Notes: generated by a model from the sequence alone, not told the origin. Counted from the first letter of the stretch, positions 13,971 to 16,427 are shown. The stretch is 64,000 nt of DNA from Parachlamydiales bacterium (GCA_963705295.1 OY970065.1:1696001-1760000), one strand, 5' to 3'. Translations and numbers: made by a program.

Positions 13971-14672
13971 TTATTCAAGATCGTAACCGATCTTAAAACC
14001 TTTTTTTTCTTTTTTAATATTTCGAATCGATACCGTTCCTATCTCTGAGGTATTCATGACATGCGTACCTCCGCAAGGATAAGCAGGCAGGTCGCCAAAC
14101 TGTATTGTTCGAGGAGTCTCTTCCCATCGATTTTTGAGTGGAAGACGTTCTTGAATCAATTTATTGACAAGATCACAGGCTCTTTCTTTCAGTTCTTGGA
14201 GATTCTCTGGAAGTTGCTCACCATCAAATAATACGAAGGCTTGTTTTGGAAAATGATTTCCATTACATCCGTCTACTTGAGGATAGAGTCGATGAACTGC
14301 ATTGGATAAAAGATGGCCTGCTGAATGATACCGAGCAAATAATTTGCGCGATTCCATATGAATGACTTGTAAAACGACCTGATCGACTCGGAGAACATTT
14401 TGATCAGAAACATAATAATGTTTGATGATATACGGATTCTCATAAGGATTGCGTGGTGCCGATAATTTACTGACGGTAAATTTAGTTCCATCGACCTCAA
14501 AATAGCCTTGATCGTCTGGCTGTCCTCCTCCTTGGGGATGAAATACCGTTTTATCGAAAACCACAAACCGACCCTTTTCGTCATCTCCTAAACTGAGAAT
14601 TCTTGCATCGAGTCGATCAAGATAAGTATCTCGATAGTAAACTCTTTCTGTTGATGGGATTGTTGGCGTCAT
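13971..14672 (-). CDS. AlaX-type freestanding aminoacyl-tRNA editing (deacylase) protein
   Basis: YYRDTY...KTVFHPQGGGQPDDQG, HSAGH (HxxxH) and CGGTH zinc motifs; GGAG SD before ATG 14672. Confidence 0.92.
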   Translation of the reverse strand: MTPTIPSTERVYYRDTYLDRLDARILSLGDDEKGRFVVFDKTVFHPQGGGQPDDQGYFEVDGTKFTVSKLSAPRNPYENPYIIKHYYVSDQNVLRVDQVVLQVIHMESRKLFARYHSAGHLLSNAVHRLYPQVDGCNGNHFPKQAFVLFDGEQLPENLQELKERACDLVNKLIQERLPLKNRWEETPRTIQFGDLPAYPCGGTHVMNTSEIGTVSIRNIKKEKKGFKIGYDLE

Positions 14673-14841
14673 AATTTTTTCTCCTATATTTATTTTTTTT
14701 GATTCAGATACAAAATGTCTTTGGGTGAAAAATAGGGCATTTACCTTCCTATTTGCCTGAGCCGCTTTGACCCTGTTCATTCTTGAAAAAGTCAAATTCA
14801 CCCGAAAGCTCCCGATACCCCTTTTTGCATGGATTGCCATC

Positions 14842-15669
14842 TTAACTCCAAAAATGCATGGGTTTGTTCTCTCCTTGATACAGAATAAACCCAGAAAGGG
14901 AAATACGTGTCTGAGCTTCCCCTACTTCAGATACAGCATGCACTTTACGCGGATTGAAAATGACAAGCTCTCCTGGTTTCGGTTGAATCGTTAGACCAGG
15001 GGGTGGAAGTAACGAACGGTCAATACCGTAACTTGAACCCCGTAATTTGTGATAGACTTTGTCCTCGAGGGAAATGTCCCAAAGTTGTAGGGCTCCTCCA
15101 GAAGGAGGTACGGCTAGATAACAATTGAAAGCTGCTTGTCCAACGTAATGAGTTTTTGACACAATCGATGGATCGTCTCTTTCTAGTTTATCTTCATGAG
15201 GAAGAATTTCTTTTCTTGTAGCACGGATTAATCCTACGAACATCGAACCTTCCCCTAAATTTAAAAGAGATGCCCCGTGATTCCACATGTCTTCAAGAGT
15301 CAAGCGGACTTTGTCTATCGGTGAGAGATAAGGTGAAAATATATCGCGAACTGCCCTTATAGAGGCCGAAACCTGATGGTAGTATGCGTTTTTTGAAGTA
15401 GGATCTTCTACCTCAAAATAAGCCATACCGATATCTTTGTATTTTCCCACTCCTGCTGCATTTGTATAATCAACAATTTCTTTTTCCCGCAATTTAGCAA
15501 GAGCGTGATCCAAAACGTTTGTGGAACAAAATTCTGGAACCCTTAATACAGAAATTTTTCCCTGAAAAAGATCATGGATATCTTCAATCCTTAAGGAATC
15601 AGATTGCCTACATACCCAGGGTTGTTGCATGACGGTTTTTGGGCTTTCGCATGTTCTTGTCGTTGTCAT
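14842..15669 (-). CDS. Fe(II)/2-oxoglutarate-dependent dioxygenase (amino-acid hydroxylase-like)
   Basis: HxD (PHED), YL..P..GGAL, distal His (KVHAV) and 2OG-binding Arg (TRISLS); GGAGG SD. Confidence 0.85.
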   Translation of the reverse strand: MTTTRTCESPKTVMQQPWVCRQSDSLRIEDIHDLFQGKISVLRVPEFCSTNVLDHALAKLREKEIVDYTNAAGVGKYKDIGMAYFEVEDPTSKNAYYHQVSASIRAVRDIFSPYLSPIDKVRLTLEDMWNHGASLLNLGEGSMFVGLIRATRKEILPHEDKLERDDPSIVSKTHYVGQAAFNCYLAVPPSGGALQLWDISLEDKVYHKLRGSSYGIDRSLLPPPGLTIQPKPGELVIFNPRKVHAVSEVGEAQTRISLSGFILYQGENKPMHFWS

Positions 15670-15803
15670 AAAAAACCTCCTAAATTTGGTTATGCGATCT
15701 ATGCTATCCTTAAGTTGGATTAAATTTCAAACAAAAAGATCAGAAATAGATCATGCCAGTCCAGAAAACGAATGTTTTTAGACAAGAAATCATTTTTTGA
15801 TAT

Positions 15804-16427
15804 TCAGAAAAATATCAGCTTAAAAGCAAATCCTATCAGAAGAATCCCCATGACAAGGGTTAGATGAGGTTGAATACGTTTGAATCTGTGATTAAACGAT
15901 GGGTGAGTGAGAATGAAGCTGAGTAATGCAAACCAAGAAAAAGTAATGAGCACAATTTCTGAAGCTATGAGTGAAAGATGTGCTACAGAAATGGTTGGCT
16001 GAACAATTTGTGTGAAAAGACCCATAACGAATAAACCGGCCTTAGGATTCAGGATATTACATAAAAAACCAGAAACAAAAGCTTGTTTGGCTGATATCTC
16101 TTGACCCATATTTTCTGTTTTTACCTCGGATGCACGGACTTTTTGTTTCCAAATGAGTTGACTACCGAGATAAAACAGATAAGCTGCGCCAGCATATTTG
16201 ATGATCGTATACACGATTTTCGATTGTTGAATGATCACGGCAAGCCCCAGTGATGAATATAAAACGTGAATAAGAAGGGCTAATGCGACACCGAGGCCTG
16301 TTAAAATCCCCATTCGTCTTGAACCGATAAGGCTATTTTTTGTGACCAAGACAAAGTCAGGCCCAGGACTTATTGCACCTAAAAGGACAATCAAACCCAG
16401 AGAAAAGAACTCAAAAAGATTAAACAT
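15804..16427 (-). CDS. LysE/RhtB-family amino acid exporter
   Basis: ISPGPDF, GAAYLFYLG, GFLCNILNPKA signatures. Confidence 0.95.
   Translation of the reverse strand: MFNLFEFFSLGLIVLLGAISPGPDFVLVTKNSLIGSRRMGILTGLGVALALLIHVLYSSLGLAVIIQQSKIVYTIIKYAGAAYLFYLGSQLIWKQKVRASEVKTENMGQEISAKQAFVSGFLCNILNPKAGLFVMGLFTQIVQPTISVAHLSLIASEIVLITFSWFALLSFILTHPSFNHRFKRIQPHLTLVMGILLIGFAFKLIFF

Follow-up and report, generated by a model that had tools for sequence, protein, structure and literature searches.

Three adjacent genes on the minus strand of a chlamydia-like genome make up, on balance probably, a compact mobile unit that handles a non-canonical amino acid (ncAA), in which an Fe(II)/2-oxoglutarate (2OG) oxygenase would make the compound, a LysE/RhtB-family protein would export it and a free-standing AlaX-type deacylase would proofread it from tRNA. 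The genes span 13971..16427 of a 64,000-nucleotide stretch from Parachlamydiales bacterium (GCA_963705295.1 OY970065.1:1696001-1760000), which is referred to in full as the window. This reading draws upon sequence comparison and upon analogy with characterized deacylase-containing clusters.

In the proposed pathway, the oxygenase would hydroxylate an L-amino acid, either free or as a simple N-acyl derivative, at a guess on the beta-carbon, and the LysE/RhtB protein would carry the hydroxylated product out of the cell. A host aminoacyl-tRNA synthetase would mischarge the product onto tRNA, and the AlaX-type deacylase would hydrolyse this product-tRNA rather than Ser-tRNA(Ala), shielding the bacterium's own translation. 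The module would then serve the production of the modified amino acid and not its destruction.

Three co-oriented genes and their predicted products

The module may be considered in terms of three minus-strand features. The predicted LysE/RhtB-family amino-acid exporter occupies 15804..16427 (207 amino acids from the ATG at 16427, within an open reading frame (ORF) of 15804-16433 that has a possible TTG start at 16433). It is followed by the Fe(II)/2OG oxygenase at 14842..15630, a hydroxylase-type member of the WelO5/SadA structural group (product P0001, 262 amino acids; the ORF reaches 15669), and by the predicted free-standing AlaX-M-type aminoacyl-tRNA deacylase at 13971..14672 (233 amino acids; ORF 13971-14840). 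In translations of the window the three ORFs are adjacent, intact and co-oriented, and all of the LysE, oxygenase and AlaX motifs quoted in an earlier sequence-only reading of this DNA can be read in them.

Judged from its context, the true start of AlaX is most likely the ATG at 14672, which has an AGGAG ribosome-binding site approximately 9 nucleotides (nt) upstream; the length of 233 amino acids from this start agrees with gene product P0176. With the chosen starts, the spacers in the module are approximately 170 nt each, the gap between AlaX and the oxygenase being 169 nt. A simple promoter and terminator scan, with counts not above those of shuffled sequence, identified no terminator-like sites in the minus-strand gaps of the module. 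Riboswitches and T-box leaders, which might have named the amino acid, were sought with Rfam across 12500-18100, with zero matches at E <= 1. No sequencing runs were listed for the locus. A complex prediction for the oxygenase and AlaX scored 0.00 against a mark of 0.32 and weighs neither way.

The oxygenase translation contains the motifs ...LPHEDKL..., ...RKVHAVSEV... and ...TRISLSGF.... Against Pfam, it scores 45.2 bits with the WelO5 profile (PF22814, cut-off 27), a match confined to the C-terminal 98 residues, and 32 bits with 2OG-FeII_Oxy_3 (cut-off 27). A word-indexed search gathered 27 homologues of 39-64% identity, among which the only named sources are a Glomus versiforme endosymbiont, a 13.5-kb contig assigned to Acaulospora colombiana, a Leptospiraceae metagenome-assembled genome (MAG) and a Chlamydiales MAG. 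Residues H145, D147, H231 and R242 are invariant across the alignment of these homologues, with the HxD lying inside an HEDKLERD motif. The protein presents the His-x-Asp...His facial triad, the Arg for the 2OG C5 carboxylate and a double-stranded beta-helix (DSBH) fold. The HxG/A of halogenases such as WelO5 and BesD is absent; since the Asp of the HxD is retained in 27 of 27 sequences, the oxygenase should hydroxylate rather than halogenate.

An AlphaFold model of the oxygenase (predicted local distance difference test, pLDDT = 94.6) was compared to known structures. Foldseek placed WelO5 at the top (template modelling score, TM 0.75-0.80) and SadA next (TM 0.63). The VIA fold search gave the same order, with WelO5 at Z 26.2 and SadA at Z 19.5 followed by a drop to Z 13 (AsqJ, prolyl hydroxylases) and then HalB at Z 10.8 and IDO at Z 9.9. 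DSBH enzymes occupy both lists. The best match, WelO5 (PDB: 5iqs/5iqt, root-mean-square deviation 2.8 over 251 residues), is a carrier-protein-independent Fe/2OG halogenase that has in common with the window oxygenase, besides the Pfam profile, a C-terminal ...WS ending; however, the identity is 16-19%, WelO5 acts on indole alkaloids, and the window enzyme keeps the HxD Asp. The second-best match, SadA from Burkholderia ambifaria (PDB: 3w20/3w21), is presumably an N-succinyl-L-amino-acid beta-hydroxylase, the title of the PDB entry reading N-substituted L-amino acid dioxygenase. It aligns over 224 residues but with 14% identity, and while SadA requires an N-succinylated substrate, a corresponding acyltransferase/deacylase gene is not present in the island that holds the module. 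From these fold matches, with an alkaloid halogenase and an N-succinyl amino-acid hydroxylase as the two solved members, the modelled oxygenase belongs to a group of small-molecule enzymes.

The fold lists also bear on a different account, in which the target of the oxygenase is a macromolecule, either protein or nucleic acid (a translation factor or tRNA, for example), AlaX provides routine quality control of Ser-/Gly-tRNA(Ala) and LysE lies nearby without any functional tie. The hits at Z 10-13 do include prolyl hydroxylases, OGFOD1/Tpa1 and AlkB-type enzymes, and one distant relative is named at its source as 'Rps23 Pro-64 3,4-dihydroxylase Tpa1-like'. However, the gap is wide between these protein and nucleic-acid hydroxylases, all at Z <= 13, and WelO5 and SadA at Z 26 and 19.5; the genome already has AlaRS editing; and the adjacency with a distinct AlaX clade described below, which is both conserved and co-inherited, would be unexpected for unrelated neighbours. 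A macromolecular target is given a very slim chance.

The wider oxygenase family is mostly bacterial; an exhaustive profile search returned 1356 representatives with E <= 1e-3, of which 289 reach E <= 1e-30. Neighbours of the oxygenase in a protein atlas are labelled WelO5-family and come mostly from Actinomycetota and Cyanobacteriota, and a cluster look-up of 10 wider-family representatives gave generic names. Several members (P0093, P0096, P0153, P0169 and P0129) are fused to cyclic nucleotide monophosphate (cNMP)-binding, GNAT acetyltransferase or MFS transporter domains. Fusions of the oxygenase to AlaX were sought among the 150 best representatives and none was found, the long forms that were checked bearing cNMP-binding, GNAT or MFS domains.

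The AlaX translation contains ...HSAGH... and ...CGGTH... and matches Pfam tRNA_SAD at 36.8 bits (cut-off 24). Together with a Gly-rich beta-barrel motif, the Zn-binding HxxxH/CxxxH, a length of approximately 230 amino acids and no synthetase core, this is the composition of the AlaX family. The sequences FHPQGGGQ, HSAGH (HxxxH) and CGGTH (CxxxH) are invariant in the eight of eight oxygenase-linked copies that were aligned. Canonical AlaX-M proteins (PDB: 9iuw and 2e1b, the latter P. horikoshii PH0108) agree in size, domain order, the Gly-rich motif and the Zn-binding residues, and match residues 62-277 of the long ORF at E 1e-20. In contrast, the score against the NCBIfam AlaXM equivalog NF040865 (E 2.9e-29, 102.5 bits) falls below the cut-off of 300, and the window AlaX belongs to a separate, oxygenase-tied clade with a Shimodaira-Hasegawa-like approximate likelihood ratio (SH-aLRT) support of 98. 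By these comparisons, it is related to canonical AlaXM without being its equivalog.

Three tRNA_SAD matches are present in the window's genome, namely an 807-amino-acid frame taken to be alanyl-tRNA synthetase (AlaRS), a 655-amino-acid frame taken to be threonyl-tRNA synthetase (ThrRS), and the AlaX of the module. Because AlaRS and ThrRS with a tRNA_SAD (second additional) domain already encode housekeeping editing, the module AlaX is an extra copy. N-terminal Arg/Ser-rich extensions on several ORFs were considered as organelle-targeting or secretion signals and rejected, as they stem from reading the longest ORF. For AlaX, the idea is also countered by the protein of locus L026, which begins right at the conserved domain, and by the good ribosome-binding site at the internal ATG of the window gene.

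The LysE translation contains ...AISPGPDF... and ...ILNPKAG... and matches Pfam PF01810 over residues 18-207 and profile positions 2-190 of 193 (121 bits, E 5.9e-35, cut-off 25.6). Among subfamily models, it scores 157 bits with NCBIfam TIGR00949 (homoserine/threonine efflux subfamily, cut-off 184), 92 bits with RhtC (cut-off 288) and 82 bits with LeuE (cut-off 165), so that neither equivalog is reached. These nearest models, all below cut-off, hint at a small neutral amino acid as the cargo.

Linkage of the trio across loci and plasmids

Related loci were gathered from four genome loci, five genome regions from a 400-genome scan of the phylum and three metagenome loci, and they include Chlamydiales and Simkaniaceae MAGs. 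An orthologous set of 11 loci besides the window was defined by an oxygenase BLASTP of E <= 1e-38; two hits without AlaX were left out of it, L025 at 24.5% identity and L017, which matches only in part and lies on a 1.7-kb contig. An AlaX ORF directly adjoins the oxygenase in 10 of the 11. The sequence-only reading had proposed a search of gene neighbourhoods for co-occurrence of the three families, and this adjacency, along with recurrence of the trio in Gammaproteobacteria, supports its functional inference. A trio that includes LysE is present in the window, L001, L004, L024, L027, L030 and L046, and in fragmented form in L047. Within the fetched flanks of the orthologous set, an orthologous LysE was found in four of the 11 loci (L001, L004, L024 and L027), L028 ending at a contig edge.

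The phylum scan gives a similar picture of co-occurrence. Ten of 400 genomes carry the oxygenase, and none of 13 same-genus genomes does. AlaX of the matching clade (>= 280 bits, the next-best hits being <= 202) is present in eight of the 400, seven of these with the oxygenase alongside. Across 12 loci, the pairwise identities of the oxygenase and of AlaX correlate with an r of 0.62, a value reached by 3 of 5000 permutations; the correlation fits inheritance as a unit, and the relatedness of the loci inflates r. The Leptospiraceae oxygenase and AlaX carry neighbouring locus tags, and the contigs of many oxygenase and AlaX homologues agree in maximum size. As judged from these neighbourhoods, the gene linkage of the trio is not chance.

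Two loci showed further detail. In L024 (genome G047, 6001-7943), two tandem oxygenases, approximately 34% identical to that of the window, are followed by AlaX, and the LysE gene is on the opposite strand with its nearer end approximately 0.9 kb past AlaX. In L003, a class II synthetase-like gene near the module was identified as EpmA beside EF-P and set aside as ordinary housekeeping.

The junctions between the oxygenase and AlaX genes differ among loci, with a stop-start overlap in L003 and L004 and gaps of 3-7 bases in L026, L030 and L001. Such tight or translational coupling, as well as the retention of the AlaX catalytic motifs in eight of eight aligned oxygenase-linked copies, would suit chemistry at the level of tRNA, whereby the oxygenase hydroxylates an amino acid already esterified to tRNA and the AlaX-like protein either releases the product or is a subunit of the oxygenase. 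However, free small molecules are the substrates of WelO5 and SadA, the closest folds; in the window, 169 nt separate the two genes and a ribosome-binding site of its own precedes AlaX; the oxygenase stands alone in L022 and in many plasmid relatives; and AlfC, the Fe/2OG enzyme of a cluster considered in the next section, acts on free methionine (PMC13149037). The chance that the module works in this way is slim.

A tblastn search identified 17 plasmid records with an oxygenase relative of 24-37% identity. Thirteen of these, proteobacterial or actinobacterial, were examined; a 6362-bp Achromobacter record (H15), which has the same length as the Acinetobacter johnsonii plasmid described below, is outside the 13. 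AlaX adjoins the oxygenase relative in six of the 13. On a 1.69-Mb replicon of Photobacterium sp. GJ3 the order is AlaX-oxygenase-LysE, with the oxygenase apparently in two pieces, and a 16-kb record of the same strain holds a fragmented second copy of the trio. Oxygenase-AlaX pairs are present in Caballeronia sp. NK8, Undibacterium sp. YM2 and Embleya. The most compact example is the mobilizable A. johnsonii plasmid L046 (NZ_CP068209.1, 6362 bp), on which the only annotated genes besides MobC are the AlaX-oxygenase-LysE trio. These are annotated as a 'hypothetical protein', a 2OG-Fe(II) oxygenase and a LysE translocator, the AlaX call being made from a tRNA_SAD match of E 4.5e-9. From these records, the trio is thus a self-contained mobile unit, and the oxygenase family is broader than the unit.

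Known deacylase clusters, sister modules and fungal relatives

According to a recent study, AlaX-family deacylases mark ncAA clusters, and approximately one tenth of free-standing AlaX genes sit in natural-product-like clusters (Millar et al., Nat Chem 2026, PMC13149037). As described there, the Alf cluster of Alcaligenes faecalis, which is conserved in 134 genomes, combines a deacylase with a transporter, a regulator and an Fe/2OG dioxygenase. AlfC is an Fe/2OG methionine beta-hydroxylase that converts free methionine to (2S,3R)-3-hydroxymethionine; this product is loaded onto tRNA(Met) by methionyl-tRNA synthetase (MetRS), and AlfB preferentially deacylates the hydroxymethionyl-tRNA(Met). 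The same source reports that BesG, of the AlaX family, clears beta-ethynylserine from tRNA(Thr) and that FuzA, in another deacylase-containing cluster, is an arginine beta-hydroxylase that gives 3-hydroxyarginine (PMC13149037).

As far as that description extends, the window trio resembles the Alf cluster in having an AlaX-family deacylase, an Fe/2OG dioxygenase and a transporter in an arrangement kept across genomes, and in the logic by which a hydroxy-amino acid would be made and, as self-resistance, deacylated from tRNA. The two differ in that Alf has a regulator and the window unit is without one, and in that the window trio belongs to an intracellular, chlamydia-like bacterium. The beta-ethynylserine cluster of Streptomyces cattleya, again as described, is similar in placing an AlaX-family deacylase, which clears a beta-hydroxy ncAA, in a cluster with a late Fe/2OG-type beta-hydroxylation, but the Bes pathway runs through several enzymes. 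A relative of the window oxygenase on the S. cattleya megaplasmid (25% identity) has no AlaX that could be found within 9 kb.

These comparisons also bear on the position of hydroxylation. A beta-hydroxylation is predicted because serine, the natural substrate of AlaX, carries a beta-hydroxyl and because SadA, the second-closest fold, is presumably a beta-hydroxylase. The prediction is made as well because beta-ethynylserine, 3-hydroxymethionine and 3-hydroxyarginine, the described ncAAs tied to AlaX-family deacylases, all carry this group (PMC13149037).

The sequence-only reading had put forward the same logic of making, exporting and proofreading, had considered the exact trio undescribed and had drawn an analogy with FthB. 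Its inference has gained support from the conserved adjacency (10 of 11), from the trio in Gammaproteobacteria and from the Alf precedent. The claim of novelty is outdated, since the Alf cluster with its 134 genomes was characterised in 2026, and the analogy with FthB stands for a deacylase but not for one of the AlaX family, FthB being assigned to the INS family (PMC13149037). The concept of such a module is already published and thus not new. What is new here is the chlamydial and endosymbiont setting, an AlaX clade in common with mycorrhizal fungi, and sister AlaX-LysE modules without the oxygenase. A literature search for the trio in Chlamydiae or mycorrhizal endosymbionts found no description, the nearest item being a paper on free-amino-acid halogenases beside transporters.

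The sister modules belong to a chlamydial AlaX clade that scores at approximately 175-200 bits. Ten of its 11 best loci were fetched (L036-L045, from genomes G327, G387, G252, G168, G263, G233, G367, G139, G228 and G171; G389 was left out). The sister AlaX directly adjoins an orthologous LysE in six of the 10. A YheO-like regulator with PAS and helix-turn-helix (HTH) domains is present in four, and a MarR-GNAT fusion lies beside AlaX in three, of which only L040 also has LysE. An oxygenase of the module's family was found in none of the 10. Judged by their gene content, the sister AlaX-LysE loci may be deacylase-exporter defence modules.

Because AlaX-LysE modules exist without an oxygenase, the part of the sequence-only reading that allowed for detoxification stays alive. 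Under such a defence, a toxic analogue from the eukaryotic host or from competitors would be stripped from tRNA by AlaX, pumped out by LysE and inactivated through hydroxylation by the oxygenase. The oxygenase-free pairs in six of 10 sister loci favour it, as do the YheO-like regulator that accompanies sister pairs in four loci and the MarR-GNAT protein in three of 10, with its acetyltransferase GNAT half; some amino-acid analogues are inactivated by acetyltransferases. Within the wider oxygenase family, the GNAT-oxygenase fusion P0169 and the MFS-oxygenase fusion P0129 point the same way. The intracellular life of Chlamydiae, which feed on host amino-acid pools, speaks for defence as well. 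However, hydroxylation is no obvious bar to mischarging, and free-living Acinetobacter and Photobacterium carry the trio too. Moreover, in those published cases where a test was made, the compound cleared by the deacylase is the product of the linked Fe/2OG enzyme (PMC13149037). Defence is considered unlikely as an account of the window trio, although credible.

Several other points weigh against production of an ncAA by the window trio. The activities of the oxygenase, AlaX and LysE are all predicted. The likeness to the Alf cluster is an architectural analogy in which AlfB, AlfC and the Alf transporter family were compared by description only. The three genes have no regulator ORF among or next to them, the HTH protein upstream being an AbiEi antitoxin, and no Alcaligenes proteins were among the nine hits of a search seeded with the Caballeronia oxygenase. 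With LysE genes so widespread in the phylum (172 of 401 genomes), LysE proximity alone is weak evidence. The oxygenase is found without AlaX in L022, beside FAD- and SDR-type enzymes, and in seven of the 13 plasmid records, beside aminotransferases, methyltransferases or lanthipeptide genes, so that the oxygenase family need not have a deacylase. Lastly, the sister loci suggest that a deacylase and exporter can work without a linked biosynthetic enzyme, and their gene content fits defence against an outside analogue at least as well as self-resistance.

The AlaX family provides a further link to eukaryotes. Among the closest relatives of the window AlaX, at 49-63% identity, are genes from the nuclear genomes of arbuscular mycorrhizal fungi, namely Rhizophagus irregularis (several strains, with contigs up to 3.7 Mb), R. 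clarus, R. diaphanus, Gigaspora rosea, G. margarita, Funneliformis and Entrophospora. The entries from these fungi and from the mucoralean Apophysomyces (P0178, P0179, P0200, P0205, P0212 and P0306) are up to 62% identical to that of the window. A further relative comes from the fungal endosymbiont Candidatus Moeniiplasma. The Apophysomyces entries are named '5-aminolevulinate synthase' at their source, which looks like a misannotation.

In a quick tree of 46 rows, with SH-aLRT support only and a midpoint root for drawing only, the fungal AlaX nests inside the bacterial oxygenase-linked clade (SH-aLRT 98), and the canonical eukaryotic AlaX that were sampled (plant, Trichoplax and two protist entries) form a separate clade. 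The oxygenase-linked AlaX of L004, L023 and the proteobacteria fall outside the clade with SH-aLRT 98; either the AlaX-oxygenase link was assembled more than once or the quick tree lacks resolution. On this phylogeny, the fungal AlaX is a likely case of inter-kingdom gene transfer, and the clade points to gene exchange between intracellular bacteria and their fungal hosts. One may go further and propose a host-symbiont weapon or lever, with environmental Chlamydiae and Mollicutes-related mycorrhizal endosymbionts exporting into the host a beta-hydroxy amino acid that is misincorporated or blocks an enzyme, and with arbuscular mycorrhizal fungi having captured the cognate AlaX from such bacteria as an antidote. 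This proposal is regarded as doubtful.

The strain-specific island and the meaning of the module

The module lies in a strain-specific island of approximately 5.3 kb, with approximate limits of 12600..17900, that is defined by a break in same-genus synteny and by low GC content. The window from 8000 to 24000 was searched against 18 same-genus genomes, query position 1 being window position 8000. The flanks are syntenic in G383, G405 and G066, matching the query up to approximately 4560 and from approximately 9917, and they lie 0.35-1.5 kb apart in these genomes versus 5.3 kb in the window. Neither the oxygenase nor AlaX was covered in G066, G383 or G405 among the matches listed. The GC content is 0.36-0.40 at 13-18 kb versus 0.46-0.48 in windows at 8-10 and 18-21 kb. 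The sequence-only reading had placed the genes in an accessory patch, and the low GC content together with the absence of approximately 12.6-17.9 kb from same-genus genomes with joined flanks agrees with this. No tRNA genes were found in the window.

An AbiEi/AbiEii type IV toxin-antitoxin pair (16463..17874, minus strand; Pfam AbiEii E 1.6e-15, AbiEi_1 E 4e-4; NCBIfam TAA_AbiEi E 2e-13) is located directly upstream of LysE at the upstream end of the island, as a neighbour outside the module. Copies that are 70-75% identical are present at non-syntenic sites in same-genus genomes. At the downstream edge, a repeat of approximately 196 bp with inverted ends, similar to a miniature inverted-repeat transposable element (MITE), lies at 12763..12958 and overlaps the last codons of a Sel1 gene. 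Its ends match in reverse (query 4763-4819 versus 4903-4958), and 14 other copies of 82-96% identity are listed in the window's own genome.

The island also contains two minus-strand genes that encode a Sel1-repeat protein (12900-13484, Pfam Sel1 E 4.5e-46) and a 166-amino-acid protein (13453-13953) with no Pfam or NCBIfam match. Sel1 or leucine-rich repeat (LRR) proteins are also found beside the module in L001, L003 and L004; these families are common in genomes of this kind and no link is claimed. Outside of the island, a 1417-amino-acid ORF at 20229-24482 has a C-terminal third composed of many Sel1-like repeats and is similar to the island Sel1 protein, as judged from the translations only. 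A DUF4143/AAA_14 ATPase gene is near the module both in the window (9729-10880) and in L003 (4591-5730); given its non-syntenic copies in same-genus genomes, this gene seems to be mobile itself.

If the trio does serve production, obligate intracellular bacteria with small genomes would be devoting three genes to an unnatural amino acid. This would imply that they interact chemically with their host cell or with competing symbionts, in a way that has not yet been looked for in Chlamydiae. For the recently proposed rule that AlaX marks ncAA clusters, the module would offer a compact and readily testable pair, a hydroxylase from the poorly explored WelO5/SadA-like group and its presumed cognate deacylase. 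The AlaX clade of fungi and endosymbionts may likewise serve as a concrete case in which to ask if hosts gain resistance to the metabolites of their symbionts by gene transfer.

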